Assembly (NCBI GenBank): GCA_964527235.1 | Contig: CAZGNC010000001.1 | Location: 83,220-147,219 of the forward strand | Length of the DNA stretch: 64,000 nucleotides | Origin: an uncultured Candidatus Saccharibacteria bacterium | GTDB lineage: Bacteria; Patescibacteriota; Minisyncoccia; Phycocordibacterales; UBA9973 | Reading direction: 5' to 3' | Shown here: one piece after another, positions 4,515 through 52,874 of the stretch | Layout: each line of letters begins with the position of its first letter | How positions within the stretch are numbered: the stretch's first letter is position 1 | Program-made: the position numbers and the translations under genes | Notes under the pieces: generated by a model | What the model saw: only the letters and a program-made list of their open reading frames with translations | What the model was told of the DNA's origin: nothing | Databases searched by the model: none

Positions 4515-4545
4515 ACGTCTGCATCCTAGCATATTTCCCCAAAAC

Positions 4546-4663: not shown

Positions 4664-4691
4664 AGGGTTCTCTATGTGTTAGAATAAATCA

Positions 4692-6581
4692 ATGCATCCT
4701 GGATTAGTGTCTTGGAAAAACTTACTCGTTTATTCTTTTAACGCTTTTTCAACTCCGCTTCTTTTGAAGACCTTGTTTGATCCTTGGAAGAGGGATGATG
4801 ACGTGGGGAGGAACTCAACATTTCTAGAAAGATTCGTCTTCGCTATTATCTCTCGAGTTCTGGGATTTATTGCTAGACTTTTCTTGATTCTTGTTGGACT
4901 TATTTTTTATTTATTGACAGTCTGCACTTTCCCTATTTTCTTTTTTGTACCTTTTAAAATCTCTACTGAGTATTTACAGAGTCTTGGGAGCGTCGGCGCA
5001 TCTCTATCTTATGGTGATACATATACACTAAATGCGCACAGTCGTGACGTGCTCTCACCGATAGCATTGAAACTTTTCGGTAAGGAGAAAACCTTTCGAA
5101 TGATCGAACGTGGGCTCGATAAAGACACCAACCACAATGTTTTGCTTGTGGGCGAGACGGGCTCTGGTAAGACTACAGTAGTGGACTATCTCGGTCGCCT
5201 AGGTCGCTCGGGGCTTTCTTTCCCAGGTATTCGTAACCATCGCGTGGTGGAGCTTTTCATGGAGGGTATAAGTATTGAGGATTTCGATCAAGCTCTTCGT
5301 GAAGCCAACTCTGCGGGCAATGTCGTTCTTGTGATTGAGAACATTCATAGTTATGAAAATATTTTCGATAGGATTATGCCGTACCTGGTGACTTCGAGTT
5401 TGGGAGTTGTGGTGACCACAGATTTTGCTAATTACGACAGAGTGCTTAAAAATTATCCAGAATTTCTTTCTAAGTTTGAGAAGGTTGATGTTCTACCTTC
5501 TAACTTCGAAGACACAGTAAATATAATTAAGAACCATGTTCGTATTTCTGGCACTAGGATCAAAGACGATGCAGTTTTAGAAATAGTCCGACTCTCTGAT
5601 AGATATATCGGCAACCAACCGCAACCACTTAAGTCACTATTGATTCTAGAAGAGCTTCGCTCGCTCAGAAAGACTATCACTATCGAAGACGTCGAGCAGG
5701 TGATTTCAGACAAAACCAACATGCCGATAGGGGCACTAAGTCGCGACGAGCGCTCTGTGTTGGTGGGCCTAGAGGACGCTATGAAGCGCAAGATCATCGG
5801 CCAGGAAGAAGCAGTTAAAGACGTGTGTAACGCCCTACAGCGCCTCCGCACGGGTATATCTGACCCTAGTAAGCCTGCAGGAAGCTTCTTGTTCTTGGGG
5901 CCTACTGGTGTGGGTAAGACCTATACAGCCAAGATCTTAGCTGAGAGTTATTTCGGTAGAAAGAATGCGATGATACGTTTCGATATGACTGAATTTTCTC
6001 TACCTGAGTCAGTGCCTACTTTCGTAGATAGACTGGCGTCAGTTATTGAAGAAGCGCCACTTTCGCTAGTATTTCTAGACGAGCTTGAGAAGTCGAACAG
6101 AATGATTCAGAATTTATTTTTGCAAATTCTAGACGAGGGGGGGCTGACTCGCGGTACAGGTAGAGAAGTGTCTTTCAAAGATGCATTAATCATCGCTACG
6201 TCTAACGCTGGAAGCGCGACAATAATACAAAATCCAAATATTGATAAGAAGACTTTGGTAAGTGATTTAATTCGCAATAATATTTTTGCGCCAGAATTTT
6301 TAAACAGATTTAGTAGTGTGGTACTCTTTGGCCCGCTTAGCGCAGATGAGGTGAGGGAAGTCGCCAAGCTTCTGCTTAACGAACTAGCTCAGAGGTTGCT
6401 TGAAGATAAAAATATAAAATTAGAAATTACCGAAGCGCTTGTAGACAAGATAGCGTTAGCGGGATTTGATTTAGAATTCGGTGCACGACCTATCAAGCGC
6501 GCAATTGAAGATATTGTAGAAAATAAAGTAGCGGACTACATAATGGCAGGGAATACTGGCGGAACTTTAAAGATTTTATAA
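4692..6581 (+). CDS. Clp/Hsp100-family double AAA+ ATPase (ClpC/ClpB-like) with an N-terminal transmembrane anchor in place of the Clp N-domain
   Basis: Two TM helices (aa ~50-95); D1 Walker A LLVGETGSGKTT; D2 Walker A FLFLGPTGVGKTYTAKILAE; LVFLDELEKS; C-terminal D2-small domain GARPIKRAIEDIV. Confidence 0.8.
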   Translation: MHPGLVSWKNLLVYSFNAFSTPLLLKTLFDPWKRDDDVGRNSTFLERFVFAIISRVLGFIARLFLILVGLIFYLLTVCTFPIFFFVPFKISTEYLQSLGSVGASLSYGDTYTLNAHSRDVLSPIALKLFGKEKTFRMIERGLDKDTNHNVLLVGETGSGKTTVVDYLGRLGRSGLSFPGIRNHRVVELFMEGISIEDFDQALREANSAGNVVLVIENIHSYENIFDRIMPYLVTSSLGVVVTTDFANYDRVLKNYPEFLSKFEKVDVLPSNFEDTVNIIKNHVRISGTRIKDDAVLEIVRLSDRYIGNQPQPLKSLLILEELRSLRKTITIEDVEQVISDKTNMPIGALSRDERSVLVGLEDAMKRKIIGQEEAVKDVCNALQRLRTGISDPSKPAGSFLFLGPTGVGKTYTAKILAESYFGRKNAMIRFDMTEFSLPESVPTFVDRLASVIEEAPLSLVFLDELEKSNRMIQNLFLQILDEGGLTRGTGREVSFKDALIIATSNAGSATIIQNPNIDKKTLVSDLIRNNIFAPEFLNRFSSVVLFGPLSADEVREVAKLLLNELAQRLLEDKNIKLEITEALVDKIALAGFDLEFGARPIKRAIEDIVENKVADYIMAGNTGGTLKIL

Positions 6582-6672: not shown

Positions 6673-8298
6673 CTACGAACTTCCTTCAACCCTTCGCATC
6701 TCTGCGAGAAGGGTAGCTTCACCTCCGGGCTCGAGCGTAGCACGAGCTTCGCCGATGAGGTCGTTAGACCCCGGCTTGACGCATCGCGAGGTGTACTCGC
6801 CGGGCAACATCCCGCGGAGAGTGGTGGGGGTGGTGAAGATTCCCACGATCCCTCCGTTTGTCCGAACTTCGCACTGCATCTCGGGCAGGTTTGCCCGGAT
6901 GTTCAGTGTGCCGCCCATGATGCAGATCAGCTTGGCTGTCTTGCCGGCTTCCACAACAGCGCGTCCTTCGCCGATGATCTGGCCACCAGAGCCAGGCTTC
7001 ACGCATTTCCCGATGTATTCACCGGGTTGTCTGTTTGTGAGCGTGGTGTCGGTCAGCCACGCTCCAATGATGGTTCCGCCGAACGACACCTTCATCTCGA
7101 CGGGACCGTCGATGTTGTCGGTCAACACCAAGGTTCCCGTGGTTGGTGCCGGCGGTGGCGGCGGAGGTGGCGGAGCCACTTCCTTTTCCACATCGCAGTT
7201 CGACACCGTGCGTTGGTCGACGTTCACCGCGACGGGTGGAACCAGTCGCGACACGTATCCAGCGGGAGCCGTGTACGTGACCGAATAGAATCCAGCCTCG
7301 ACATTGATGCTGTCGGGCAGGGCGGGGAAGGACTTCAGCACAGACGAACTTCCAAGCTTCCGCACTTCAGCTTTCACGCCTGCAACTGTGCAGGTAGCGA
7401 GCAGCTTGCCCATGATTCTGGGCGGCGGCGGTGGAGCCGGCGGTTCCGGCTTGAGCGGGTTGTCACACACCGCGTTTGCTGAACCTCCTGCTGGCACCAC
7501 AGCGTAGGCCGTATCGGCCATACGCTTTCCTTCGGGGTCTTCGCATACAACCACGTAGCCTCCCGCCTTGACCTTGAGGTCGAAGTCGGTCGTTTGTGTG
7601 GTCAAGAGAGACCCGTAGAGCGCCGTGTATACCTTCGCGCGCATCCCTCTGGGTGAGGAATACACGTTGAGCACTCCGCTGTCCGACGCTATGGTCGGGA
7701 GCGGAGTGAGGTCGACGAGGAGCGTCTTCGTCGTTCGCGGATCTGGTGTCCATTCGGCCAGCCTGCTAGCATAGCCAGCGCGGCTGAGCGCGAAGATGTA
7801 CGATGACCCGTTACCGACGACGCTCGCCGTGTGAGGCGTCGTCGCATTTGTGAGCTTGGTCCAAGTGGTCGCACCGTTTGTGCGAGCCTGAGCCATGCTG
7901 TCTACCTTGGCCGTCATGCCGTCCTGTGTGCGGACGATGATGGTGGCCATGCTGTCGAGCGGCATCGTGGTCGACGGTTTGACCGTGACGCTGTCGGAGG
8001 CCTGGGTGTTTCCACCAGGGCCAGATGCGAACGCCCGGTATCGTACCGAACGCGACGGGTAGTCCGTCAACGTGTCGCACTTGGCGACAGTGAACCCTCC
8101 GGGTGACACCTGGATGGTGTTGAACCCAGTACCGCAGACTTCAATCTGCACCGGTTGCCCGGTCGTGATCGAGTCCTGCTTGATGTTGATCGTGACCGTT
8201 GGCGCTTCAGGCGCCGACGGTGGGGCTGTGATCTCTTCTACCGGATTGTTACATCCGGCGAGGATGACGAGCCCTACGATTGCAGCGAATCTTTTCAT
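6673..8298 (-). CDS. Secreted lipoprotein with PEGA-like domains, poly-Pro linkers and two C-terminal repeated beta domains (high-GC island)
   Basis: Start is placed at MKRFAAIVGLVILAGC (lipobox LAGC) with RBS GAGGAA 5 nt upstream. The track ORF extends a further 44 codons to 8430. PEPPAPPPPP and PPPPPPPPAP linkers. PEGA-like GFYSVTYTAPAGYVS. Duplicated ~60-aa C-terminal unit (PGEYIGKCVKPGSGGQIIGEGRAV / PGEYTSRCVKPGSNDLIGEARATL). About 60% GC. Confidence 0.7.
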   Translation of the reverse strand: MKRFAAIVGLVILAGCNNPVEEITAPPSAPEAPTVTINIKQDSITTGQPVQIEVCGTGFNTIQVSPGGFTVAKCDTLTDYPSRSVRYRAFASGPGGNTQASDSVTVKPSTTMPLDSMATIIVRTQDGMTAKVDSMAQARTNGATTWTKLTNATTPHTASVVGNGSSYIFALSRAGYASRLAEWTPDPRTTKTLLVDLTPLPTIASDSGVLNVYSSPRGMRAKVYTALYGSLLTTQTTDFDLKVKAGGYVVVCEDPEGKRMADTAYAVVPAGGSANAVCDNPLKPEPPAPPPPPRIMGKLLATCTVAGVKAEVRKLGSSSVLKSFPALPDSINVEAGFYSVTYTAPAGYVSRLVPPVAVNVDQRTVSNCDVEKEVAPPPPPPPPAPTTGTLVLTDNIDGPVEMKVSFGGTIIGAWLTDTTLTNRQPGEYIGKCVKPGSGGQIIGEGRAVVEAGKTAKLICIMGGTLNIRANLPEMQCEVRTNGGIVGIFTTPTTLRGMLPGEYTSRCVKPGSNDLIGEARATLEPGGEATLLAEMRRVEGSS

Positions 8299-8329
8299 GT
8301 GTTCCTCATCGGGGGTTCTTGTGTGGGAG

Positions 8330-9391
8330 CTACTTGCGTTCGCTTGGTGTCCATCGGAGCATGGCCCCGAGTCTCCATCCGATTCCTTTTGTGGGGTTGT
8401 TGGGTGTCTTAGCAAGAGTGTTCTGGCCATAGGTAATGTCTAGGTTCCAGATCGCTCTCGTATCCTTGGCGATCTGTAGTCCTGCGTCCAGACCTAGGCG
8501 ACCATAGTTGTTCTGCTGAACCCAGTTTCCGTTTACTCCCTCCGTGCCGGAGGTGCATGTAATCTCATCATGTCCACCGCCGGCGGTCAAGCCGAATGGG
8601 CCAGAGATGTCTCTCCTGATTCCAAGGTCGAACGATTTGTTCGCTTGGCTGCAGGTTCGACTTTGTCCTCTGGGCGAGTATCCAACCCGCCCTGTGAGTT
8701 CGAACGGGACGACGCGGGCCTTAGCAAAGAATCCCACACCAAATGTGAATGTCGAAAGGCGTTTTCTGCCTCCCGAAATCCCGTATCCGGGGCCGACAGC
8801 GAGGTCGATCCAGGACTCGTTCTTCTTCGCCTCTTCCTTCTTACCGCTGTCGGCGTTCGAGTTGTCGATCATCTTCTGGACCACCCCGGCGATTTGCGCC
8901 GTGGTGTCCTTCAGCGCACTGATGTCCTTCTTGGCCGACTGCATGTCGGTATTGAGCGTGTCGACTGCCTTGGTGACAGTCGCCAACGAGTCGTTCGGCG
9001 GTGCCGAGGCGACTGGGCAATCGAGGGAGATCATCACACCACGGTACTGCGGACCGCGTTGTGGTACTGCAATTCCCTTGGCATGAATTCGTCCGAGTTC
9101 GATCTTCTCGATCTCGTTCAGGATTCTTGTTACGTTACCTGCGCGGCGATCCGCGAGGTCTTGGTTCTGCTCCTTGTTGTTGGTTTTGTAGGGGGTTCCG
9201 TCTGCGAACCCCGTGACGTTGATATGGCACGAAGTGCCCGCGGCAATCGCAATCTCTTTCAATGCCAGACGGGTCTCGTCCTTACCAAGTGTGTACCCCA
9301 TGAAGGGGTATACGGTCGCCTTCGTTTCCTGCGCCTTGAGGGCGAAGGGGAAGATGGCGACCATGAGGATGGTCAGAATGAAGCGAAACAC
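8330..9391 (-). CDS. OmpA-domain protein with inverted architecture: N-terminal OmpA-like peptidoglycan-binding domain, coiled coil, C-terminal beta-rich (barrel-like) domain (high-GC island)
   Basis: GTG start with RBS AGGAG-acaaa-GTG. The track ORF is longer, with an upstream ATG. Signal peptide FRFILTILMVAIFPFALKAQE. OmpA-like motif INVTGFADGTPYK...NQDLADRRAGNVTRILNE. Coiled coil, then alternating-hydrophobic segments ending ...GWRLGAMLRWTPSERK. Confidence 0.65.
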   Translation of the reverse strand: MFRFILTILMVAIFPFALKAQETKATVYPFMGYTLGKDETRLALKEIAIAAGTSCHINVTGFADGTPYKTNNKEQNQDLADRRAGNVTRILNEIEKIELGRIHAKGIAVPQRGPQYRGVMISLDCPVASAPPNDSLATVTKAVDTLNTDMQSAKKDISALKDTTAQIAGVVQKMIDNSNADSGKKEEAKKNESWIDLAVGPGYGISGGRKRLSTFTFGVGFFAKARVVPFELTGRVGYSPRGQSRTCSQANKSFDLGIRRDISGPFGLTAGGGHDEITCTSGTEGVNGNWVQQNNYGRLGLDAGLQIAKDTRAIWNLDITYGQNTLAKTPNNPTKGIGWRLGAMLRWTPSERK

Positions 9392-9691
9392 TTTGTCTCC
9401 TGCGTTGTTGGTTGTGTGACTATTCTTCGGCTTCCCGGTAAGCGTTTGTGTTATTCTATAGCTTTTTTCGTAGTTGAAGTTGTCAAGGTACTGTGATGCC
9501 GGGGGATCCGGCCCACAGAGATTGTTCTCATAAAGACGGATTCCGACTACTGACCTATTACTAGCATAAAAAGTGCATTTTGTCAATGCCTAGCTTGACG
9601 TTTTTGGATTTTATGAAAAAGACAAAGCCGGGTAGCGTGGTGTTCGCTATCCCGGCTCGGATGTCCTCGTTGATGTCCCCTGAGGAAGGGG

Positions 9692-10210
9692 TTACCGCCA
9701 GGTGCGAATCATCACACCTGTGTGCAGACCAAGTGCCTGCTCTCCGTGGTTATTTCTTGTCCAGGCGAGGCCTGGGGCAAGGATGATGCCGAGCTTCTTG
9801 ACGTGCAATGTGTATGCTGGGCCAAGAATCAGGCCCATCTCGCGTTCTCGCTCATCGCGACAATTGTTTGCCTCTATGAGGGCACCTGCTGTGGCGCCCC
9901 ATGGACCACGAATCTCACGATGAATTGAGGCGACCAGAGCGCTCGAGCGTTCAGTGCAGTGATCCCGGGCATTTGCCCAGAATCCTCCCTCTACTTCGAT
10001 GTCGGTCCGATGGTCGATTCGTACGATGCCGATGACGGTCGGTTTGGTGCTCGATCTGCCGTTTGAACGCAGGTCGGACACTCCCGCGCCGAAGTTCAGG
10101 CGCGGGGACGGATTGTGTACGGTCTGGTGCGAGCTGTCTGCGGGTGAGTGTTGCGCATGAGAATTAGTAGCCCATGCGAGAATCGCAAGAAAAGAAATAA
10201 TTATACGCAC
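9692..10210 (-). CDS. Small outer-membrane beta-barrel (OMP_b-brl/porin-family-like) protein with signal peptide (high-GC island)
   Basis: GTG start with RBS GGAG-aatctc-GTG. Signal peptide MRIIISFLAILAWATNSHAQ. The ~150-aa mature part has amphipathic beta-strand periodicity. Confidence 0.5.
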   Translation of the reverse strand: MRIIISFLAILAWATNSHAQHSPADSSHQTVHNPSPRLNFGAGVSDLRSNGRSSTKPTVIGIVRIDHRTDIEVEGGFWANARDHCTERSSALVASIHREIRGPWGATAGALIEANNCRDEREREMGLILGPAYTLHVKKLGIILAPGLAWTRNNHGEQALGLHTGVMIRTWR

Positions 10211-10357: not shown

Positions 10358-10389
10358 TTTTATTCCTCTAGATATAAGGAGGTGATTGC

Positions 10390-10908: not shown

Positions 10909-10985
10909 ATCAATAGCCGGTCTTGTTGTTGTTTTTTCTCTGTTTTCTGTTAGTATAATAAAAGTTCTCTAGAGAATTATTGTAT

Positions 10986-13858: not shown

Positions 13859-13928
13859 TTTTTACCGAAGTAAATTTACTATCTATGTTTAGCTCGAAAA
13901 TTTAGATAACTTCTGGTATTATTTACTT

Positions 13929-14309
13929 ATGAAAACAAATAGTAACAAATACGTAGATGGGTTTGTGATACCAATAAAAAAGAAGGATGTAGAAGCTTAT
14001 AAAAAGATGGCGATAGCGGGTGCAAAGATGTGGAAAAAATACGGTGCCTTGGAGTATTTTGAATGCATAGCAGATGACATAGAAGTTAAAAAAGATATGC
14101 CACAAAAAGGCTTCGGCAAACTCGCAGGTCTTAAGCCCGATGAGACTGTTGTGTTTTCTTGGATAGTTTATAAATCCAAAGCTCATAGAGACCAAGTAAA
14201 TAAGAAAGTAATGAGTGACCCAAGCATGAATGATTTCGATCCTGCCACCATGCCAATCAACATGAAGCGTTTCGCTTCTGGAGGCTTTAAGCCGATAGTT
14301 GAATTCTAA
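13929..14309 (+). CDS. DUF1428 (YbaA-like) family protein
   Basis: KYVDGFVIPI..., FSWIVYKSKAHRDQVNKKVMSDP and GGFKPIVEF align with E. coli YbaA. Confidence 0.85.
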   Translation: MKTNSNKYVDGFVIPIKKKDVEAYKKMAIAGAKMWKKYGALEYFECIADDIEVKKDMPQKGFGKLAGLKPDETVVFSWIVYKSKAHRDQVNKKVMSDPSMNDFDPATMPINMKRFASGGFKPIVEF

Positions 14310-16864: not shown

Positions 16865-17035
16865 GGCGGGTCTCCGGGTTGTGCCTAGCAAAGCTAGGCG
16901 GTGATTTGTGCAACTGAGTACATTATAGCACGTTTTATGCTCAAAAGTCAATAGGCAAAACACCTTATATTGACTGTGTTTTGTAGTGTTTTTAGGCGAT
17001 TTAACATAAAGCCATATTTGTGATACAATGTAGGT

Positions 17036-17719
17036 ATGGAAACAAAAGATAAACTAAAGGAATATGGCGTTTTTTGGGTAGCTTTGGCATTACTAGTATT
17101 TGCATTAATATTTTTCGTGTCAGCTAGAGGATTCTCTGCGCAAGGAAAATTCGTAGAAGTTAAAGGTCTTTCAGAGAGAATCGTTAAAGCTGATGTGGCT
17201 ATCTGGTCTATCAACTTTGAAGTTAAGTCTAACAACATTGATACTCTTTCTCTCGATATCGAAAAGAATATTTCCGGAATAAAATCTTTCCTAACAGAGA
17301 AAGGATTTGAAGCTTCTGAGATAAATATCGCTCCAGTAAATATTTATCAGGATACTTATCGTGATGCACTATTCCGATACAATGCGAACGTGCAAATGTC
17401 TGTATATACCAAGAAAGTTGACCTAGTGAAGTCTGCTTCAGGAGAGACTCTGTCTTTGGTTAAAAAGGGCGTAACTATGAATCAAAACATGGTAACCTTC
17501 GAATTCTCTGACCTAAATAGCATCAAGCCCGAAATGTTACAAGAAGCTATCAAGAATGCGAGAGTTTCAGCTACACAGTTTGCCAAGGATTCTGGTTCAG
17601 CCCTAGGTGGCGTGTCTCGCGCGAATCAGGGAGTTTTCGATATTACTGAGAAAGACCCAGGTTCTCCTGAGTACAAGAAAATCCGCGTAGTTTCAAGTTT
17701 GAGATTCTTATTAAAGTAG
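17036..17719 (+). CDS. SIMPL/DUF541-family protein with N-terminal TM anchor
   Basis: TM anchor FWVALALLVFALIFFV. C-terminal ...AIKNARVSATQFAKDSGSALGGVSRANQGVF resembles the SIMPL domain. Extended -10 TGATACAAT lies 6 nt before the ATG. Confidence 0.55.
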   Translation: METKDKLKEYGVFWVALALLVFALIFFVSARGFSAQGKFVEVKGLSERIVKADVAIWSINFEVKSNNIDTLSLDIEKNISGIKSFLTEKGFEASEINIAPVNIYQDTYRDALFRYNANVQMSVYTKKVDLVKSASGETLSLVKKGVTMNQNMVTFEFSDLNSIKPEMLQEAIKNARVSATQFAKDSGSALGGVSRANQGVFDITEKDPGSPEYKKIRVVSSLRFLLK

Positions 17720-17930: not shown

Positions 17931-18611
17931 TTATTCCAAAGCCTCAGTGTTGTTCCAAGTTAAGAGCTTCCACTCGGTTTTACTAAACCAGTGTGGAATA
18001 CAGAGGCATATAGTCATGCCGGCGTTGTTGATGGGGTTAAAATAGCTAAGCTCGTTATACTGTGAGGCAGTTAGCTTCTTGCCGTATAGCATGGATGCGA
18101 TGACCATTTTAAGAAATATTCCATGGGTCACCATTATTATTCTTTCTTCTTTTTGTCCCTTGATGAAGCGAAGTAGCTTGTGGGCTCTGTTTTTCAAATC
18201 TATGAAATTTTCTTCATCAGAATAGCGTAGATTATCTTCATGAAAGCTGTTGTCGATACGGTCGACTATTTGTTTTACTTCTTTTGAGTCAGCCTTTTTA
18301 CCGATTATTTCTGAAGGGTTCCTTCTTTCTACTAGAAGATCAGAAAAATGGATTTCCATGTCCAATTCTTTGGCAATTATTTCTGCGGTTTCTTTGGTGC
18401 GCTGATACGGACTTGCAAAGAGTATCTGGGGTTTGCCTCTTTTCTTTGGGAATTTTTGTGCAGTTTCTAGTGCCTGTCTACGACCGAGTTCAGTCAGAGA
18501 GCCTTCTGAGCCTTGCCTTATACCCTGGGCATTGAGCTCTGATTCTCCATGTCTAACGAAGTAAATAATTTTTCTAGCCATAGATAATATTTTAGCATAA
18601 CTGCCTTGCAA
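17931..18611 (-). CDS. Histidine phosphatase superfamily (phosphoglycerate mutase-like) protein
   Basis: IIYFVRHGESELN (RHG catalytic motif)...TELGRRQA. Extended -10 TGCTAAAAT lies 6 nt before the ATG. Confidence 0.85.
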   Translation of the reverse strand: MQGSYAKILSMARKIIYFVRHGESELNAQGIRQGSEGSLTELGRRQALETAQKFPKKRGKPQILFASPYQRTKETAEIIAKELDMEIHFSDLLVERRNPSEIIGKKADSKEVKQIVDRIDNSFHEDNLRYSDEENFIDLKNRAHKLLRFIKGQKEERIIMVTHGIFLKMVIASMLYGKKLTASQYNELSYFNPINNAGMTICLCIPHWFSKTEWKLLTWNNTEALE

Positions 18612-18665
18612 CGACTATGGATTCTTGGATTTTGGCTTATTTTCTTGCTATACTGCAATTAATTT

Positions 18666-19352
18666 ATGAACAACAATTTACCTAGAGTTTCTGCGGTTGT
18701 GGCAGCATATAGAGAGAGACCTCGCATAGGTAGTGTACTCGAAACTTTACTTGCCTCAGATGTATTGAGTGAAGTGGTGCTGGTGGATGATGGGTCAGGT
18801 GACGGTACTGAAGAATACGTGCGAAAAGAATTCCCAGCTGTGCGATTGCTAGTAAATGAGCGCAACCACGGTAAAGCATACTCAATGGATAAAGGAGTGA
18901 AAGCATCTACTGGGGATGTGATATTTTTCTGTGATGCAGACCTGGTGGGGCTAACACCCGAAATGGTTAGAGATATGGTGAGCCCGGTGATAGAGAATAA
19001 GTACGATATGTTTATTGGCATACGTAATAATGTAATGCAGAAATCATTTCTGCCCTTTGCTCTAAACTCTGGTGAGCGCACGATGCGTAAAGAGGTTTGG
19101 CAGAGGTTGCCTCAGTTTTATAAGTTCAGATTTCGCATAGAGGCAGGGCTTAACTTTATGGTGTATTTTATGGGGCGACGTGGTTTGGGTTACAGGGTGA
19201 TGCCGTACTTTCAGACATTAAAAGAAAAGAAATATGGTTTTTGGCGTGGGGAGTGGCAACGCCAGAAAATGAATTTAGATGTGGTGACTGGCTGGGTGAG
19301 AGCTTTCTTTGAATTTTTATTTTTGGCGAAAATTCTAGGTAAAAAGTTATAA
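18666..19352 (+). CDS. Glycosyltransferase family 2
   Basis: VVLVDDGSGDGT...HGKAYSMDKG...FFCDADL. Confidence 0.85.
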   Translation: MNNNLPRVSAVVAAYRERPRIGSVLETLLASDVLSEVVLVDDGSGDGTEEYVRKEFPAVRLLVNERNHGKAYSMDKGVKASTGDVIFFCDADLVGLTPEMVRDMVSPVIENKYDMFIGIRNNVMQKSFLPFALNSGERTMRKEVWQRLPQFYKFRFRIEAGLNFMVYFMGRRGLGYRVMPYFQTLKEKKYGFWRGEWQRQKMNLDVVTGWVRAFFEFLFLAKILGKKL

Positions 19353-19361
19353 AATATATTT

Positions 19362-19970
19362 ATGGTAGAACAACTCACATGGTTACGGGAAGTAATAATT
19401 AATTATCCTTCGTTTCAATACGTGACGATATTCTTGGGCGCTGCGCTTGGAGGGGAGGTAGCACTTTTTACGTTAGCATTTCTGGCGGCGCAGAAAATAA
19501 TTTCTCCTATCGCCTTGGTTTTATTGAGCTTGGTTGGCACGATGTGTTCTGATTCTATGTGGTTCCTGTTGGGTCGGACAAATCCTGCCAAGAAATTCAT
19601 CTATCATCGTTATACTACTTCGACCATTACAGTTATAGCTGAAGCAATACGCAGAGTAAGTCGAGGGAGTCATCTGATGGCTCTGATATTTGCAAAATTT
19701 CTAGTTGGGACTCGTATTGTGATGCTCCTTTACCTTAGTAATTTAGAGTTTTCTTTTAAGGAATTTATCCGCTATAATGTGGTCGCTACCTTAATCTGGC
19801 TTCTGGTGGTTATACCGACTGGGTATCTCTCGGGTTTGGGCTTTACGTATGTAGCAGAAGTTTTCCAGAATATTTATGCCGGGCTAGGGTTTGTCTTTTT
19901 GGTTTTGATAGTTATAGTTATACTTCAATTATGGTTAAAAAAGATATTCATCCACATGCGCGACCGATAG
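19362..19970 (+). CDS. DedA/SNARE-associated (TVP38/TMEM64) family membrane protein
   Basis: VTIFLGAALGGEVALFTLAFLAAQK...LVGTMCSDSMWFLLGR. Confidence 0.55.
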   Translation: MVEQLTWLREVIINYPSFQYVTIFLGAALGGEVALFTLAFLAAQKIISPIALVLLSLVGTMCSDSMWFLLGRTNPAKKFIYHRYTTSTITVIAEAIRRVSRGSHLMALIFAKFLVGTRIVMLLYLSNLEFSFKEFIRYNVVATLIWLLVVIPTGYLSGLGFTYVAEVFQNIYAGLGFVFLVLIVIVILQLWLKKIFIHMRDR

Positions 19971-20701: not shown

Positions 20702-20758
20702 TGCTTGACTTAGGCTGTGAGTATTTTAAGATAATATTGAATATACACCGGAGCGTGT

Positions 20759-20923
20759 ATGAGTGCATTCGATAAGGGGCAGCGCGGTGATGAGACCATC
20801 AAGACCGAGCTCCCAACGTTTCGTCTGAAGCCAAGCCCAATTCCGCACTTGGCTACTCCAGAGGATAACGGAGAGTGCAGGAGGCCGTTGCCTCCTGCGA
20901 CGCAGGGGAAAGACCCTCAGTGA
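20759..20923 (+). CDS. Possible 54-aa hydrophilic ORF in a GC-rich intergenic module (alternatively an ncRNA)
   Basis: GGAG-cgtgt-ATG. ~58% GC patch (20740-20990) between AT-rich genes. Weak terminator-like hairpin at 20946-20975. No homology recognised. Confidence 0.2.
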   Translation: MSAFDKGQRGDETIKTELPTFRLKPSPIPHLATPEDNGECRRPLPPATQGKDPQ

Positions 20924-21014
20924 TCATACATGGGGGCAGGTAAAGGGGGCCGATTGCAGCACAGCGCAGTCGGTCCTTTGTACTTTAATGCCCCAAATAT
21001 GATATAATGTAATT

Positions 21015-21413
21015 ATGAAAATCAACTTATTAAGCAAGAATATGGAGCTCACAGAGGCCATATATGAGTATGTTGAGAAGAGGGTTACTAATTTAGAAAA
21101 ATTATTAGGCAAGATTGAGGAGAGTGGTGGGGAAGTTTCTGTAGTGTTCGAAGTTTCTCAGAGTAGTAAGCGTCACAAGTCAGGAGATATTTTCCATGCA
21201 GATTGTTTAGTAAAAATAAAAGGCGAAGAATATTATGCTAGTGCTGATGAGAGTGATCTATATGCCGCTGTAGATAAAATCAAAGACACTCTATTTAGAG
21301 AAATAAGTAAAGACAAAGATCGCACTCAGACACTACTTCATCGTGGAGCTCGTAGCGTAAAGAAAATGCTCAAGGGCCTCTCAAAGAGAAATCCTTTCAC
21401 CTCTAAATATTAA
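21015..21413 (+). CDS. hpf: Ribosome hibernation-promoting factor / RaiA (S30AE family)
   Basis: MKINLLSKNMELTEAIYEYVEKRVTNLEKL matches the HPF N-terminus (MQLNITGHN.E.T.AL...V..K..KL). Confidence 0.75.
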   Translation: MKINLLSKNMELTEAIYEYVEKRVTNLEKLLGKIEESGGEVSVVFEVSQSSKRHKSGDIFHADCLVKIKGEEYYASADESDLYAAVDKIKDTLFREISKDKDRTQTLLHRGARSVKKMLKGLSKRNPFTSKY

Positions 21414-24080: not shown

Positions 24081-24692
24081 TTATTTCACACTTCCTGGGA
24101 GCAAATCCATATCACTTACCGGCAATAAGCGTAGGAAGGCCCTACCCACTAAAAGATCTTTTTTTACTGGACCCCAATATCTAGAGTCTGAGCTTGCATC
24201 TCTGTTGTCGCCCATAACAAAGTATTCGTCGTTACCTAATTCAAAATGCATAGCTTCGTCATTGGAGGGATTTTTTATAAAATATTGATCAATCTTGAAC
24301 CCCTCTTTGTTTTCTTTGTTGGTTATGGTGACAGTCTCTCCCTTTATATCAACGGTTTCATTTGGGAGCCCAATGATTCTTTTTATAAAGAATTTTGTGG
24401 TGTCCTTGGGGTATTTAAATATCACTACATCAAGTCTTTGAGGTTCGCCGAGGCGATAAGATAATTCATCTACAATTAGATAATCTGAATTTTCAAAAGT
24501 AGGAACCATTGAAGACCCAGATACTATGAAAGGCTGGGCTATAAACACTCTCACAGGCACCACGACGGCTATTGCTACTAAAGCAAAACCGGCAAATTCT
24601 AATATAGATTGGCCGAGGGTTTTTAAGGGAGTGGGGCTGGTTTCTCTCGAACCAACTTCTTTTTCTAATTCCATGCTTATAATATAGCACAA
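24081..24692 (-). CDS. lepB: Signal peptidase I
   Basis: Catalytic-Ser box GSSMVPTF and box E GDNRDASSDSRYWG. TM anchor. Confidence 0.9.
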   Translation of the reverse strand: MCYIISMELEKEVGSRETSPTPLKTLGQSILEFAGFALVAIAVVVPVRVFIAQPFIVSGSSMVPTFENSDYLIVDELSYRLGEPQRLDVVIFKYPKDTTKFFIKRIIGLPNETVDIKGETVTITNKENKEGFKIDQYFIKNPSNDEAMHFELGNDEYFVMGDNRDASSDSRYWGPVKKDLLVGRAFLRLLPVSDMDLLPGSVK

Positions 24693-24770
24693 AAAAGTAT
24701 TGACACAACACCTATATGTGTTTTGAAATAAAATTTGCCACTTCGGTGTTTTGAGTGGTATTATGAATGC

Positions 24771-25304
24771 ATGAAATTATTAGTTGGTCTTGGAAATCCT
24801 GGAGAGGAATACGAAAACACTAGGCACAATACTGGACGTATTGTGGTAGGTTTGGTTGAGAAGAAGCTCGAAGATAGTAATTTAAAAATAAAATACCTCA
24901 CACCAGACACCTTTATGAATAATTCAGGTAAGGCTGTTGCGCCGTTAGTGAAGTCTAAAAAAGATTTGAAAGATTTAGTGGTAGTGTACGACGATATTGA
25001 TTTACCACTAGGTAAGATGAAAATTTCTTTTAATCGTTCTTCTGGTGGTCACAATGGTCTAGGATCTATCATAAAGTCACTAAAGACTGAAGAATTTGTT
25101 CGTATTCGAATAGGTATCGCGCCATCGACACCATCTGGAAAAATAAAAAAGCCAAAAGGTGAGAAAGCCACACTTAACTTCCTCCTAGGAGAGTTTAAAA
25201 AGCCAGAACTCGAAGTTTTGAAAAAACTCTCAAAGAACGTTGCTCTCGCAGTAGAAACTATCTTTACTGAAAGCAAAGATAAGGCGATGACTTTATATAA
25301 TTAG
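24771..25304 (+). CDS. pth: Peptidyl-tRNA hydrolase
   Basis: Start is placed at MKLLVGLGNPGEEYENTRHNTG (the track ORF begins 12 codons upstream). Extended -10 TGGTATTAT lies 6 nt before this ATG. Confidence 0.85.
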   Translation: MKLLVGLGNPGEEYENTRHNTGRIVVGLVEKKLEDSNLKIKYLTPDTFMNNSGKAVAPLVKSKKDLKDLVVVYDDIDLPLGKMKISFNRSSGGHNGLGSIIKSLKTEEFVRIRIGIAPSTPSGKIKKPKGEKATLNFLLGEFKKPELEVLKKLSKNVALAVETIFTESKDKAMTLYN

Positions 25305-28300: not shown

Positions 28301-28524
28301 GCTGTCATGTATGCTTCAACACCAATAATAGGCTTAACACCGGCCTTCTTGGCTAATTTATAGAACTCTATTGCGCCGTACATGTTGCCGTGGTCAGTGA
28401 TAGCTATAGCGGGCATATTGAACTTCTTGGCTAGGTTAACTAAATCCTCAAGTTTTGAAAGCCCGTCTAGAAGGGAGTAGTGGCTGTGGGTATGCAGATG
28501 TACGAAGCTTTTTTCCATGCCCAT
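25306..28524 (-). CDS. dnaE: DNA polymerase III alpha subunit
   Basis: N-terminal PHP domain [14 protein letters not shown]. 1072 aa with the polymerase core. The likely true start is MEKSF at 28518, placed 8 nt after a TATAAT box. Confidence 0.95.
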
Positions 28525-28565
28525 TGATTATACTAGTTTTTTATTTTTTTGGTATAATTAAAATT

Positions 28566-29588
28566 ATGAAAAAAATAAGAGTTGGAATTAATGGTTTCGG
28601 TAGAATCGGACGAGCTTTTTTGAAAATAGCGTGGGAACGTCCAGAATTGGAGATAGTTGCAGTAAATGATTTGGGGGATGTGCACAACTTAGCTTATTTA
28701 TTAAAACATGACACAGTCTACAGAGAGTGGAAGCATGAGATAAGCGCTGAAGGACAGATAATTAAAATTGATGGAAAGGAAGTGAAAGTTCTAGCCGAGA
28801 AAGATCCTGCGATGCTTCCTTGGAAGGATTTAGAAGTAGATGTAGTTGTAGAGTCTACTGGACTTTTCACTTCTTACGATAAAGCTAATGCACACATTAA
28901 AGCTGGCGCTAAGAAAGTTGTAATTTCTGCCCCTTCAAAAGGTGGAGACGACAGTGTGCATGGAGAGACAATACTACTTGCGGTGAATGAAGAAAAATTC
29001 GGAACTTGTGATGTTACCTCGAATGCTTCTTGTACCACGAATGCAGCTTCTCCACTTATAGCGATACTTGATGAAACATTAGGAATCGAGAAAGCGATTT
29101 TAAGTACAGTGCATGGCTATACTGCATCTCAAGCATTAGTTGATGGTCCAAGCAAGAAAGACATGCGTGAAGGTCGTGCAGCAGCGCAAAACATAGTGCC
29201 TTCTTCTACAGGAGCAGCTATCGCAGTAACGAAAGCTTTTACCAAACTCGAAGGACTCTTTGACGGGATATCTATCCGCGTGCCAGTACCAGCGGGGTCT
29301 ATTGCGGATATTACTTTCATTTCCAAAAAAGAAACTACAGCTGAAGAAGTAAATGAAATATTGAAGAAAGCTGCGTCTGATAAAAGATGGCAAGGAGTTT
29401 TCGCTGTTACCGAAGAGCCACTCGTTTCGAGTGATATATTGGGCAATTCCCATGCATCCATCGCAGACCTCGAGATGACTCGAGTGGTGGGTGGTAATTT
29501 AGTGAAAGTTTTAGGTTGGTATGACAATGAAATGGGGTATACATATACGCTTGTAGACCACGTTATCAAAACAGGTCAGTTGATTTAG
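28566..29588 (+). CDS. gap: Glyceraldehyde-3-phosphate dehydrogenase
   Basis: INGFGRIGR NAD-binding motif; active-site ASCTTN. Start is at MKKIRVG. Extended -10 TGGTATAAT lies 7 nt before the ATG, so the transcript is likely leaderless. Confidence 0.95.
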   Translation: MKKIRVGINGFGRIGRAFLKIAWERPELEIVAVNDLGDVHNLAYLLKHDTVYREWKHEISAEGQIIKIDGKEVKVLAEKDPAMLPWKDLEVDVVVESTGLFTSYDKANAHIKAGAKKVVISAPSKGGDDSVHGETILLAVNEEKFGTCDVTSNASCTTNAASPLIAILDETLGIEKAILSTVHGYTASQALVDGPSKKDMREGRAAAQNIVPSSTGAAIAVTKAFTKLEGLFDGISIRVPVPAGSIADITFISKKETTAEEVNEILKKAASDKRWQGVFAVTEEPLVSSDILGNSHASIADLEMTRVVGGNLVKVLGWYDNEMGYTYTLVDHVIKTGQLI

Positions 29589-29937: not shown

Positions 29938-30025
29938 TTAAAGTTGTATCTCCAAATTACCTTGATCTATTTTAGGAGTTATTGCGATAAGGTTGCTTTG
30001 TGTGGTGGTGTGGTATAATCATTAT

Positions 30026-30505
30026 ATGAAAATTTTTGTTGGAACAGATCATGCGGGGTATGTTTTAAAAGAGAAACTTGTGGTTTTGCTCAAGGGTCTT
30101 GGGCACGAAGTAGTTGATAAAGGAGCTTTCGGATACAACGAAGAAGATGATTATCCTGATTTTGTTATACCAGTAGCAGAAGAAGTTTCCAAGAATCCAG
30201 ATACCGTAAAAGGGATTATATTAGGAGCCACAGGTCAAGGAGAAGCTATGGTTGCTAATAAATTTCCTCATGTTCGTGCAGTTGTATATTATGGTGAAGC
30301 ACATAGTGTGGTGGATGATGAAGCCGATGTGGTAGAAAGATCCAGGGCGCATAATAATTCTAATATTCTTTCTTTGGGCGCCAGATATCTCACAGAAGAA
30401 ATTATGACTAATGCTGTTGCGTTGTGGCTCCAAACACCATTTAGTGAAGGAGAAAGACACATTCGTCGTTTGGCAAAAATTGATAAAATAAAAATAAATG
30501 GTTGA
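30026..30505 (+). CDS. rpiB: Ribose-5-phosphate isomerase B (RpiB/LacAB family)
   Basis: MKIFVGTDHAGYVLKEKLVVLLKGLGHEVVD. Extended -10 TGGTATAAT lies 6 nt before the ATG. Confidence 0.85.
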   Translation: MKIFVGTDHAGYVLKEKLVVLLKGLGHEVVDKGAFGYNEEDDYPDFVIPVAEEVSKNPDTVKGIILGATGQGEAMVANKFPHVRAVVYYGEAHSVVDDEADVVERSRAHNNSNILSLGARYLTEEIMTNAVALWLQTPFSEGERHIRRLAKIDKIKING

Positions 30506-33059: not shown

Positions 33060-33118
33060 TTTGTTATTGTGGATAACTTTATTTATAAGCTTAAGCTCTA
33101 GGGTGATATAATTAATTT

Positions 33119-36100
33119 ATGAAAAAATTCATAATTGGCTTTTTATTTTTTGGAACTTTTTTATTGATTCCAAGTATTAGTCTTGCTCAGACTTCAGGAT
33201 TTGGTGGTTATGATCCTAATAAGCCTCCAGCAGGTTATGATGCTGATTGTTGGGCAACTAAATTTTCTAGCCAAGGCGTGGGAGTTGACCTAAGAACAGG
33301 AAAGAGTGTTGATTTCCATTGTCGTGCTTTGACTGATAATACTACTGCGAAGTTTCCCAATGATTGGTATCAATGGACTGCTCAGCAATGGCAAACCATG
33401 TTTGCGGATGTGAAAACCAATCCTTATATCAAAGGTACCGTCACCGCGACGACTTTTTCTTGGGCAGAACAAGCTTATAACCAGGCTGGCATAAAAGCTG
33501 CGGCTGATTTAATGGCGCATAACTTAACAGTATCTCAAGCTGTTTCGGGAAATTGGCCAGGAGGACCTAATTATAAACCAGTTACTACTTCTTCCAATTC
33601 CACCAGTTCAGCAACTGTTGATGTAAAAGCAGATGGTCAGGATGGAGGAGTGAGTGTTCCAGCTTTTTCTAATGTTTCTATCTCTTGGACTTCAAGCGGT
33701 ATGAATGTTTGTAATATTTCTGCTCCAGATGCAAGTTCTCGTGTTTCCAATAGCGGTTCTTTAACAATGACCGTCCCATCTAGAATTGGATACACAAATA
33801 ATTGGCCATATACGATTTATTGTCTGGATTCAGGTGGTCAGAGATTTTCAGATACAGTTACAGTGAGTGCTACTCCAGCGTCTTTCCCTGCGAAGCCTGC
33901 ACCAATACCATTCATTGCTACTATGGCTAGTGGTTCTGATTGCCAGGCTGTAAATATTTCTTGGGGTTCATATGATTTAAATACAGCTTCAAGTTTCAAT
34001 ATATATCGAGATAGTATTAAAGTTGGTAGTGTAAACGCTAATGTATATAACTATCAGGACACAGGTCTGGTTGTCGGTAAAACTTATAGATATACAGTAC
34101 GAGCTGTTGGTACAAATGGTGAGTCTTTAGATTCGAATGCATCCTCATCTATTCCTAGTGGTTCTTGCAGTTCGTCAAATCCTAATCCCTCAACTATCAC
34201 ATACCCAACTCCAACCCTACCCACAACCACGACAACTACCACCAAAACTACACCCAACGTATTACCAGTAGGTTGTTCTACTACCGCAGGGCTAAGTCCA
34301 ATAACAGGAATTGCTTGCTCGAGTAATGGTGCAACAACCTACTATACTTCTTCAACTCCTACAGTGAAGGCCTCAGGATCATTGCCAATAAATCTTATCG
34401 CTTCTCCGTCTTCGATTTCTGCTGGTCAGGCGTCTACAATTGCGTGGAGTTCTACGGGGTTCACATCTTGTTCTAGTATAGATTTTTATGTTCCAAGAGG
34501 GAATTCAACTGCGGGTTCTGCTGTGGTGTATCCATCTAGAACCACAACATTTTGGATTGAATGTACAAAATCTTCTGGTGTAGAACAAAAGTCAGTCACT
34601 ATAACTGTAGGTGGCACTGGTAGTTCGTCTTCTGGTGGTTATGTGCCTCCCACCACGACTCTACCTATTGGAACAACACCACCTACTGTTGGCACTCCAA
34701 CGGTTGTACCGTCTTCTTACTGTGTTGGTAATGTTTTACCTACCATTCCGACCCCACCAGGACCGGTACCAACAGGTTGGGATGGTGTGTACACACGCGC
34801 TATTGATTTGATGGCGACAATGCAAAACAACATGAGTACCAACTATGTACTCGCGGCTCAATATAATTTACTTTCTGCTATGTTGGGAGCTCAGGGTGGG
34901 CAAAATGATTACACTCCGCCAGCAAATATCGCACCATTTCATACCTGGGTTAATTTAGTTTACAGAGCAGGGAGTGCTTGGGTGGGTGAAAGGGCTGTTA
35001 CAGGTCCTAATGGGCAAGGAATTCTACAAACTACCACTACTGGATCGTCACTATCTCAGTTGTTAAATTCTTACGGTGTTAATTGGCTACCTACATGTCC
35101 AGGGTCTTCTGGAACTGGTTCAGGAAGTGCCGTAATAACTTCTTTTACTGCGTCTCCTGATTCAATTTCTTCTGGAAATTCTTCAACTCTTTCTTGGACT
35201 ACAAGAAATGCTTCTTCCTGTGAAATAATAGGATCAATTAATGAAACAGTTCCAGTAAATGGGAAAAAAGTTGTTAGCCCTTCGGAGACTTCGTATTATG
35301 TTTTGCAGTGCACGAGTGCCAATGGGGTTACTGGTGTCGGGAAATATGTAACTGTCGATGGTTTACCTTTTGTGCCGAAAAATCCTGTGATTTCTATAGA
35401 TGTGTCTCCAAATATTATTACAGTTCCTCCTCTGACTTCAAGGACAATTGATGCGACTGTTAGCTGGAGCACAACTAATGCCATAACATGTTCAGGTGAC
35501 TTTGATGTTAATAGTGGTTCTGTAAAAAAAGCTCTTTCTGGATCAGAAATTGTTAAGATTCAAGTACCACCTAGTGCCTCGGGTGATACAGAAAGACATG
35601 TATTTACTTTGACTTGTGGAGGGGTGGGCACTAATAACATTTCTAAGTACACTACTTTAGATGTTAAGATCAGCAATGCGTCTCAGTCAAATTCTACAAA
35701 ATTTAAGGTTGGAGATAGTGTGTCTACTACTTCAATGTTGAACGTTCGTAGTTCAGCATCGATCAATGGTCAGGTATTAGGTACTCAAGCCAGGGGCGCA
35801 GTAGGTAAAATTATTAGCGGTGGTAATTACATAGATGGATATTATTGGTGGCAGGTTGATTATGTGAATGGCGATGACGGATGGAGTGCAGAGAACTATT
35901 TAACCAAGAGCACAAGTTCTTCTAGTACATCTTCTGGTGTACCTGCGTCTGTGAATGTAACTGGAGTTAAAGATGGGGATACAGTTTCTGGCACCTTGCA
36001 ACTCGGATTTGATTTTACTGGTGATACTTGTACATCCACTGATGGTGTTACCAAAGCCCCTTGCTCCTTGAATTGGCATACAGTAATTCTTTTAAGGAAT

Positions 36101-37594: not shown

Positions 37595-37926
37595 CCTGTT
37601 AGAAGTTAAAATTAAATTATAATACCCAAACAATTCTCGTTATTGAAATTTGTAACGGGATTTATGTTAAAATTATATCATACAATATGAAATTTTTCTT
37701 AATTTTTGTTATTTTCTTGGTCTTGCTTGCAGTTTTGGTTTTTGTGTTGCGTAAAACCAAAAATCAGACAAAAATCGGCGACGATTTTGAGATTCTGGAG
37801 TAGTAATTTCGACAAGTTAGGGCACTGAACTTTTCGGTGTAATTTTTCGCGTAAAAAGTTATGCACAACTGTTGAAAAACCCTATATTGCAAAAGAAAAA
37901 TATGCTAAAATTAACTTGTTACACTA

Positions 37927-51893: not shown

Positions 51894-51996
51894 ATGGTTG
51901 TGTCTATTTAATCACGTTATCGTATAATTTACAAATTAAATATTTTATTAAAACCATAGCTTCCTTTTTTTAATAATCATTGTTATAATTCACCCC

Positions 51997-52380
51997 ATGA
52001 GGAAATTAAACATAATTCTAGTTCTTCTTATAGTTGTTTTGAGTGCAACAACTTTTTATTTTTACAGGAATAGTCAAATTTCTAAAGGTCCTGGATCAAA
52101 AACTATTGATCAAACTGAAGCCAAAGCCCTATCTGACAAAGTGGGGAAATTAATAATGTTACCTTCGGATGAAATTCCTACAATCGCGACCGTTTCAGAC
52201 CCTGAGGCTCTCAAAGATCAGTCTTTCTTTGTTGATGCAAAGAAGGGTGACAAGGTTCTGATATATTCAAATGCCAAAAAGGCAATCCTTTATGACCCAG
52301 TAGCCAACAAGATCATAACAGTTGCCCCTCTTGATACTAAAAACCAAAATCCAAATTCTACCCAATCCGGAACTCCATAA
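51997..52380 (+). CDS. Small TM-anchored hypothetical protein, paralog 1 of a tandem pair
   Basis: Shares GKLIMLPSDEIPTIATVSDPEALKDQSFFVDAKKGDKVLIYSNAKKAILYDPVANKII with the next gene. Extended -10 TGTTATAAT lies 7 nt before the ATG. Confidence 0.55.
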   Translation: MRKLNIILVLLIVVLSATTFYFYRNSQISKGPGSKTIDQTEAKALSDKVGKLIMLPSDEIPTIATVSDPEALKDQSFFVDAKKGDKVLIYSNAKKAILYDPVANKIITVAPLDTKNQNPNSTQSGTP

Positions 52381-52433
52381 TAATTGACTTTTGTAGTTGT
52401 ATTTCTGAAATAGAACTATGTTATAATATTTAA

Positions 52434-52874
52434 ATGAGAAAGTTTGCCTGGGAGCATCTTCCGTTGATTTTGGTGTTTTTGCTCGTTGTTGTGGGCTCTT
52501 TGACTGAATATTTTTATGAAAATGATGTCGTGTATGAGAACCCCAATTTAATTGCTGAAAGTCAGGTCAGTGTTTATACAGAAAAGATTGGTAGGCTGGT
52601 GTTTCTACCAAAGGATGAGATACCAAGTGTTGCCACAGTGTCTGAGCCAGAACTTCTAAATAATCAGATATTTTTCGCAGAAGCGAAGAAGGGATATATA
52701 GTGCTTATTTATTCAAACGCAAAGAAGGCTATATTGTATGACCCAATAGCAGACAAAATTATTGCCATGGCTTCAGTCAATATAGGTGATGTAGAGCAAT
52801 CAGCTGAAATGTTGCCGGATTTACAGCCTGGGCAATTTAAAGAGTCAGACACGACAACAGAGAATCAATTTTAG
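52434..52874 (+). CDS. Small TM-anchored hypothetical protein, paralog 2
   Basis: GRLVFLPKDEIPSVATVSEPELLNNQIFFAEAKKGYIVLIYSNAKKAILYDPIADKII. Confidence 0.55.
   Translation: MRKFAWEHLPLILVFLLVVVGSLTEYFYENDVVYENPNLIAESQVSVYTEKIGRLVFLPKDEIPSVATVSEPELLNNQIFFAEAKKGYIVLIYSNAKKAILYDPIADKIIAMASVNIGDVEQSAEMLPDLQPGQFKESDTTTENQF

Follow-up and report, generated by a model that had tools for sequence, protein, structure and literature searches.

In a 64-kb stretch of a single genome (hereafter the window; about 40% GC, with tightly packed short genes), the motif TGnTAnnAT stands 6–8 nt upstream of many start codons, and Shine-Dalgarno (SD) sites are nearly absent from native genes. We identify the motif as an extended -10 promoter of the sigma-70 type and not as a translation signal, and the pattern as a whole is very probably explained by extended -10 promoters set for leaderless transcripts without SD sites. 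According to this explanation, a sigma-70-type extended -10 promoter (TRTGnTAnAAT), with a -35 element that is weak or dispensable, would be placed for RNA polymerase to initiate on the A of the ATG, about 7 nt past the -10 hexamer. The resulting mRNAs would have neither a 5' untranslated region nor an SD site, and they would be translated through the leaderless pathway, in which the ribosome and initiator tRNA recognise the 5'-terminal AUG directly. Leaderless initiation would thereby be the main expression mode for the first genes of transcription units in this genome, the mRNA probably beginning at the AUG in about half of the units, and some packed genes would possess a promoter of their own inside the 3' end of the gene before them.

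The lineage of the window is Paceibacteria/Nomurabacteria, within the candidate phyla radiation (CPR; Patescibacteria), with a small genome of groundwater type. Its GAPDH is 83–86% identical to proteins from metagenome-assembled genomes (MAGs) of Candidatus Paceibacterota / Nomurabacteria, and about 75 further orthologues of the gap gene come from Paceibacteria/Parcubacteria genomes. Sequencing runs SRR14271365, SRR14271372 and SRR14271373 contain the organism.

Spacing of the box at gene starts and scarcity of Shine-Dalgarno sites

We curated 53 native gene starts in the window and compared 28 first genes with 24 closely following (internal) genes, using as null models dinucleotide-preserving shuffles and, as a second control, 263 internal in-frame ATGs. 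A cruder pipeline, which takes the first ATG of each open reading frame (ORF) of at least 100 aa, was run on the window, on a 50-kb control from E. coli, and on relatives (478 kb around gap in 77 Paceibacteria genomes, a single-gene sampling with crude gene calls). An upstream sequence was counted as SD-like when a tetramer or longer match lay 4–13 nt before the start.

Over the AT-rich background of the window the spacing is strongly enriched. TGnTAnnAT at a spacer of 6–8 nt precedes 13 of the 53 curated starts, against a shuffle mean of 0.12 (maximum 2 in 1000) and 1 of the 263 internal ATGs, while the looser TANNAT precedes 20 of 53 against 2.2 expected. The arrangement TGNTANNAT-N6-ATG occurs 10 times in the window where 0.87 is expected, and none of 100 dinucleotide-preserving shuffles gave more than 3. 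The excess of TGNTANNAT overall is modest (68 vs 46 expected) and roughly equals the number of promoter-positioned sites. When gene models are set aside and only the distance from TGNTANNAT to the ATG of an ORF of at least 100 codons is recorded, eight sites lie at 6 nt, five at 7 and one at 8, and each other distance from 0 to 40 nt holds 0–2 sites. In the crude pipeline, a -10 box at a spacer of 6–8 nt was found at 21 of 56 starts in the window, 138 of 453 in the relatives (30%) and none of 40 in E. coli. About 15 of the 28 first genes carry a -10 box at a spacer of 5–9 nt, and five more have one that predicts a leader of 3–9 nt.

SD-like sequences, on the other hand, are scarce. They precede only 1 of the 53 native starts, compared with 2.5 by shuffle and 33 of the 263 internal ATGs, and a five-base SD was found at no native gene start in the window. 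The crude pipeline gives 1 of 56 for the window and 13 of 453 (3%) for the relatives, as against 16 of 40 for E. coli. Upstream of the genes without a box, the sequence is A-rich (about 50%) and G-poor (about 8%).

The individual gene starts are collected in Table 1. An earlier note on this DNA had listed gap, rpiB, pth, the DUF1428 and SIMPL genes, the gene at 51997, a histidine phosphatase gene and dnaE, claiming that at least seven native genes share the arrangement. The gap case stands exactly as described, and those of rpiB, pth, DUF1428, SIMPL, the 51997 gene and dnaE are all present at their sites and spacers; the histidine phosphatase motif is likewise on the minus strand, but it lies at 18597–18589 with a 7-nt spacer, not near 18626 with 6 nt. 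The count itself was too low, further cases being found at 4677, 21000, 33104, 52419, 58034, 30481 and 24689–24681 (minus strand). Boxes without TG occur at the same distance before 22767 and 24070 too, and a second class of genes has TGnTAnnnT 10–15 nt before the ATG; their predicted leaders of about 3–9 nt are too short for an SD site.

Table 1. Coordinates in the window of putative leaderless-type gene starts (range from box to start codon), promoters of RNA genes, and GC-rich segments with SD-like sites (GC3, GC content at third codon positions)
Feature	Position	Strand	Details
gap	28550..28568	+	TGGTATAAT at 28550-28558, 7-nt spacer taaaatt, ATG 28566; Pfam-confirmed
dnaE	28516..28532	-	TATAAT (28532-28527), 8-nt spacer, ATG 28518 (MEKSF)
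rpiB	30011..30028	+	TGGTATAAT-6-ATG 30026
rpe	30481..30500	+	TGATAAAAT-8-ATG 30498; box within rpiB 3' end, 8-nt gene overlap
pth	24756..24773	+	TGGTATTAT-6-ATG 24771
Signal peptidase S26	24672..24689	-	TGCTATATT (24689-24681)-6-ATG 24674; divergent from pth, 96-bp intergenic
DUF1428 gene	13914..13931	+	TGGTATTAT-6-ATG 13929
SIMPL/DUF541 gene	17021..17038	+	TGATACAAT-6-ATG 17036
Histidine phosphatase	18579..18597	-	TGCTAAAAT (18597-18589), 7-nt spacer, ATG 18581
ClpB-like AAA+ gene	4677..4694	+	TGTTAGAAT-6-ATG 4692
Hibernation factor (HPF, S30AE)	21000..21017	+	TGATATAAT-6-ATG 21015
1153-aa gene	33104..33121	+	TGATATAAT-6-ATG 33119
127-aa gene	51981..51999	+	TGTTATAAT-7-ATG 51997
146-aa gene	52419..52436	+	TGTTATAAT-6-ATG 52434
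372-aa gene	58034..58052	+	TGTTAAAAT-7-ATG 58050; box within upstream gene, 4-nt overlap
VTT-domain gene	19347..19364	+	TAAAAT-6-ATG 19362, without TG; box lies in 9-bp gap behind GT2 gene
Second class (TGnTAnnnT 10-15 nt before ATG)	2198-2215, 12409-12431, 18643-18668, 37903-37929, 59193-59214	+	predicted leaders about 3-9 nt
RNase P RNA promoter	4517..4531	-	TGCTAGGAT, 5 nt upstream of model position 1 (4517)
tRNA-Asn promoter	10948..10956	+	TGTTAGTAT, 29 nt upstream of tRNA (10986)
GC-rich island	6673..10210	-	57-61% GC; GC3 0.58-0.71 vs 0.31-0.44 native; genes 6673-8298, 8330-9391, 9692-10210
Mini-gene 1	10334-10570	+	TTGACT-N17-TAGAGT; TAAGGAGGTGAT 5 nt before ATG 10390; 20 aa MFSFADFVNAVFEGWKPLKK; GC3 0.81
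Mini-gene 2	16951-16690	-	TTGACT-18-TGCTATAAT; about 45-nt leader; GGAGA; 36-aa hydrophobic ORF MRRKIADFLIFTATLAAGAVLDAIGTDSIDRALGMF; GC3 0.81
Mini-gene 3	20704-20995 (ORF 20759-20923)	+	TTGACT-N16-TAAGAT; about 20-nt leader; GGAG-6-ATG 20759; 54 aa

The start codons themselves have independent backing. Pfam confirms gap, rpiB, pth, DUF1428, His_Phos_1, SIMPL and dnaE, with models starting at residues 3–9 from these ATGs, and an independent gene caller applied to a Logan contig picked the identical starts for pth and gap. For dnaE, the Logan-contig gene call opens the gene at a second in-frame ATG (28524, MGMEKSF), which sits just 2 nt off the -10 box. Because three orthologues begin ATGGAAAAA, and because of the promoter geometry, MEKSF (28518) is favoured and the called start is probably two codons too long.

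Promoter identity, start geometry and conservation

Combined in a logo, 159 sites of the window and its relatives read T-R-T-G-n-T-A-n-A-A-T, which is an extended -10 element of the TRTG form, with T at 58% and G at 58% at the TG positions. The -35 region of this logo shows a faint TT, whose match is slightly above that of an offset control. Two-hexamer promoters were tried as the signal and ruled out, as classical -35/-10 pairs are not enriched in a scan over 12–32 kb (48 found vs 49.6 expected). The TG-extended form prefers first genes, preceding 11 of 28 of these versus 2 of 24 internal genes (Fisher p = 0.012). It is also found in front of two untranslated RNAs, namely the RNase P RNA (4161–4517, minus strand) and tRNA-Asn, which the window holds together with tRNA-Ala. 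Because its promoter abuts the mature 5' end, with a 5-nt spacer, the RNase P RNA here may need no 5' processing.

As a rule, transcription starts about 7 nt past the -10 hexamer at a pyrimidine-purine step. Transcription starts have been reported to centre 7 bp downstream of the -10 box, and a pyrimidine-purine-pyrimidine element, Y(-1)R(+1)Y(+2), coincides with the start in 93% of cases if its centre lies 7 bp downstream and in 79% if it lies 8 bp downstream (PMC12641261). In the spacer-6 class of sites, the A of the ATG is the seventh base past the box and is preceded by T or C in 85% and never by G; in the spacer-7 class it is the eighth base, with a pyrimidine before it in 78%. A Y-A-T triplet thus lies 7–8 nt past the -10 box, and the start codon itself is therefore the predicted start element.

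Gene arrangement provides a further constraint. The start codons of dnaE and gap are 41 bp apart (47 with MEKSF), with two opposed, back-to-back -10 boxes between them, and the other divergent pairs, 24674/24771 and 18581/18666, are separated by 96 and 84 bp. Such pairs leave no space for leaders or upstream promoters. Between the RNase P gene and the leaderless-type promoter of the 4692 gene lies a terminator hairpin with a T-run (4627–4663, plus strand), which would block antisense or read-through transcription.

The geometry is retained in related genomes. Among 71 gap orthologues with 58–86% protein identity, the nearest -10-like hexamer lies at a spacer of 6, 7 or 8 nt in 28, 7 and 8 cases (43 altogether), and 26 of these 43 have TGn and 37 a pyrimidine at -1. 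In a minority of the orthologues, the -10 box lies 22–37 nt upstream, and the leaders are likewise without SD. Six of seven dnaE orthologues have TGCTAnTAT or TATAAT 6–8 nt before the start, and 22 of 59 rpiB orthologues have TANNNT at a spacer of 5–9 nt, rpiB being otherwise coupled behind gap. In L086, a syntenic relative contig that is 82% identical to the window, the boxes and spacings before the His_Phos, GT2, VTT and HPF genes are kept and spacer bases are changed: the VTT gene has TAGAAT at the same spacing, the HPF gene differs at two spacer bases, and the GT2 gene (18666, second class) retains its 11-nt spacing. Loci L007, L010–L013 and many others stem from TPA MAGs titled "uncultured Candidatus Saccharibacteria bacterium", with gap 60–80% identical and the same gene-start architecture; these titles may be generic CPR labels, not accurate taxonomy.

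Boxes of this kind are not limited to genes with free upstream space. Over the relatives and the window, a -10 box at a spacer of 6–8 nt precedes 43% of genes that lie 11–40 bp behind a same-strand neighbour and 21% of those that lie at most 10 bp behind or overlap it. Chance would give about 3–8 genes per class, and the figures could be too high if loose A/T-rich hexamers around stop codons contribute to them. Within the window, the loose TANNAT at the same spacers is enriched before internal genes (7 of 24). It is thus probable that many genes which appear operon-internal, such as rpe and the 58050 gene, own a leaderless promoter.

GC-rich segments and small genes with Shine-Dalgarno-like sites

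The earlier note had further claimed that GC-rich modules use classical SD sites and that this contrast helps to mark foreign DNA. As regards SD, the claim holds for the three genes of a GC-rich island and for three mini-genes only (Table 1); as regards foreign origin, it is too broad. The island, which adjoins tRNA-Ala, has the SD-like sites GAGGA, AGGAG and GGAG 4–6 nt before the starts at 8298, 9391 and 10210. Its products, a lipoprotein-like 541-aa protein, an OmpA-like protein and a 172-aa protein, have signal-peptide-like N-termini, and a search among 5.8 billion proteins with the OmpA-like one returned only itself and one distant match. Short Logan contigs that carry the island all end at 10467–10490, and none bridges into the AT-rich native flank. 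The island was likely acquired by horizontal transfer; an assembly chimera is possible.

The three GC-rich mini-units share a layout of TTGACT as -35 element, -10 box, leader, SD-like site and small ORF. In the unit at 10334–10570, TAAGGAGGTGAT is the only perfect SD of the window, two GC-rich hairpins come after the ORF, of which the second has a T-run, and a role as small peptide, leader or toxin is conceivable. The promoter of the 16951–16690 unit, with 11 of 12 matches, is the best classical promoter in a 20-kb scan. This unit ends in a hairpin with a T-run and folds well beyond its shuffles (z = -4.1), and it encodes either a small peptide of the membrane or an uncharacterised RNA.

The unit at 20704–20995 has a counterpart in L086 (about 2945–3260) with 72% aa identity, in the same place between a hydrolase gene and HPF. 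About 70 nt of promoter and leader, GGAG included, are almost invariant between the two, and early codons differ mainly at third positions. A small hairpin (ATACAC-CGGAGC-GTGTAT) holds the GGAG in its loop, and its 3' arm overlaps the start codon. The region folds with z = -5.7, and the 54-aa product may be a regulated small protein. Because promoter, leader and GGAG are conserved in L086 and the changes fall mainly at third positions, 20759–20923 is taken as a native protein gene. GC-rich sequence is consequently not always foreign, and, with a native gene led by GGAG, SD pairing may still work in this organism. An Rfam search at E <= 1 over 16.5–17.0 kb and 20.65–21.05 kb gave only a sub-threshold PreQ1-III match on the wrong strand; despite their strong folds, the units in these two regions are treated as small protein genes because of the GC3 bias and the synonymous substitutions.

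A further GC-rich stretch, at 40.9–41.8 kb, is not a module with its own start. It lies inside a native ORF of 1937 aa (37927–43740, plus strand), and GC content there is high at first and second codon positions and low at third positions (GC3 0.24). The ORF has no Pfam match and contains a glycine-rich low-complexity repeat of about 320 residues with GGGGGG runs (40861–41830), the source of both the local peak in GC content and the strong GC skew.

Alternative readings and comparison with known systems

Transcription at or next to the ATG without SD, as the earlier note proposed, is supported by the positional enrichment, the first-gene preference, the boxes of RNA genes and the YRY element, as well as by divergent genes only 41–47 bp apart, the near-absence of SD relative to E. 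coli and the conservation in about 75 relatives. The same data bear on three other explanations. In a genome of about 40% GC, where TA-rich hexamers are common, one might suspect that AT-rich composition or wrongly assigned start codons produced the pattern, and several ORFs do have upstream TTG or GTG codons to which they could be extended. Chance and mis-annotation are nevertheless rejected by the dinucleotide shuffles (0.12 genes vs 13 observed, 0.87 sites vs 10), by the background level at other spacings in the histogram, and by Pfam domains that begin at residues 3–9 with coinciding orthologue N-termini, so that we consider this explanation hardly credible. Only slightly more credit is due to the idea that TGnTAnnAT serves as a non-SD ribosome-binding site or translational enhancer on leadered mRNAs, as in group B of GeneMarkS-2, and is no promoter. 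The distance of 6–8 nt would suit a ribosome-binding site, and another signal might be expected where SD is absent. Yet every base of the motif agrees with the sigma-70 extended -10 consensus, and the motif also stands in front of RNase P RNA and tRNA-Asn, neither of which is translated. In its TG form it is rare before internal genes (2 of 24), whereas group B motifs should precede first and internal genes equally (PMC6028130). Such a role is very improbable.

A more serious, still unlikely, alternative accepts the promoters as real and holds that most protein is made from longer read-through or polycistronic mRNAs. SD-less initiation would then proceed via A-rich unstructured upstream sequence (S1-dependent, Bacteroidota-like) or via termination-reinitiation coupling, and the box would act mainly as an A/T-rich unstructured initiation region. 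Internal genes with A-rich, G-poor, SD-less upstream sequence imply that some SD-independent mode must exist anyway. The enrichment of loose -10-like hexamers even at most 10 bp behind a neighbour gene, and the SD-less leaders of those gap orthologues whose box lies 22–37 nt upstream, speak for this alternative as well. It does not readily account for the TG, the sharp spacing and the -1 pyrimidine, which are traits of start selection by RNA polymerase and not of an unstructured ribosome-binding site. Nor does it fit the preference of the TG form for first genes, the lack of room for upstream promoters in divergent pairs, or the terminator directly upstream of the leaderless-type promoter of the 4692 gene.

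Several points weigh against the explanation by leaderless transcripts. The 5' ends are predicted from sequence, not observed, here or in any Paceibacteria, and the TANNAT enrichment before internal genes could stem from an A/T-rich signal connected with translation. A small number of genes carry GGAG, including a conserved native one, which would allow for residual SD pairing. The 3' end of 16S rRNA was found neither in the window (Rfam) nor in the fetched loci of relatives, and no rRNA, rplA or rpsU locus lies within the window. Knowledge of the motif entered into the choice of some curated starts, but the histogram, which does not depend on starts, and the pipeline based on first ATGs agree with them.

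If leaderless transcripts are indeed the rule here, gene callers that learned from SD sites will put starts in the wrong place in such genomes, as probably with dnaE, and short intergenic distances may mislead operon prediction where leaderless promoters inside operons are common. The bacteria that use leaderless initiation as a major mode would be joined by a deep-branching lineage of low GC and reduced genome, which bears on whether this mode is ancestral or was repeatedly derived in genome reduction. It also ties the ribosomal oddity of Parcubacteria, the frequent lack of anti-SD and bS21, to a concrete gene-start architecture. A bolder proposal, which we offer tentatively and with more doubt than confidence, is that the class Paceibacteria has all but given up SD-led initiation. 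Most genes, including seemingly operon-internal ones, would be individually promoted and leaderless, and the gene-start design would have co-evolved with a reduced ribosome (anti-SD tail, bS21 and uL1 lost in many members). Paceibacteria would in that event be a large low-GC clade with recognition of a 5'-AUG as the default and with residual GC-rich, SD-bearing mini-genes.

The leaderless mechanism is already known, and what is new is its probable occurrence in this low-GC CPR lineage; in a full-text search over about 8 million papers, no earlier description of leaderless starts came up for CPR, Patescibacteria, Parcubacteria or Saccharibacteria. The closest known system is group C of GeneMarkS-2, mainly Actinobacteria and Deinococcus-Thermus, which is defined by a Pribnow box (TANNNT) 6–8 nt from first-gene starts and has a predicted 25–50% of leaderless transcripts (PMC6028130). 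Genomes of this group that use genetic code 11 are nearly all high-GC, and low-GC Mollicutes with code 4 were added later (MetaGeneMark-2 preprint). Like Mycobacterium tuberculosis, Streptomyces, Corynebacterium and Deinococcus deserti in this group, the window has the box at 6–8 nt, prefers first genes and shows the 25–50% frequency, its fraction being similar or higher (11–16 of 28 first genes). It differs in GC content (about 40%), in belonging to CPR, and in a box that is the full TG-extended TGnTAnAAT and not the loose TANNNT; moreover, the remaining genes of group C use SD at the same distance, whereas those of the window do not (1 of 53). By their published description, the Mollicutes resemble it as low-GC reduced genomes with 30–60% of transcripts predicted to be leaderless, but they belong to another phylum, use another code and have SD-type ribosome-binding-site models for their other genes (MetaGeneMark-2 preprint). 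With the Bacteroidota of group B, the window shares native genes without SD and A-rich sequence upstream of internal genes; group B, however, has one non-SD motif for first and internal genes on leadered mRNAs, unlike the promoter signal found here, which is concentrated at first genes and also precedes RNA genes.

Within the CPR itself, Tsurumaki et al. 2022 (RNA 28:1041) detected the CCTCCT motif of 16S rRNA at its 3' end in no more than 48% of Parcubacteria, with an overlap with the group that lacks uL1, and found bS21 to be often absent. The near-absence of SD in the window and 77 related loci fits such a loss of anti-SD, and the conserved GGAG mini-gene suggests, by contrast, that SD pairing may persist; the paper covers ribosome features, not gene-start architecture or leaderless promoters. 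Compared with extended -10 sigma-70 promoters in general, the signal has the same TG one base upstream of the hexamer, T and a purine beyond it as in the TRTG of Firmicutes, a weak -35 element, and a YR start about 7 nt downstream. The promoter itself is thus ordinary, and it is its systematic placement against the start codon that is unusual.

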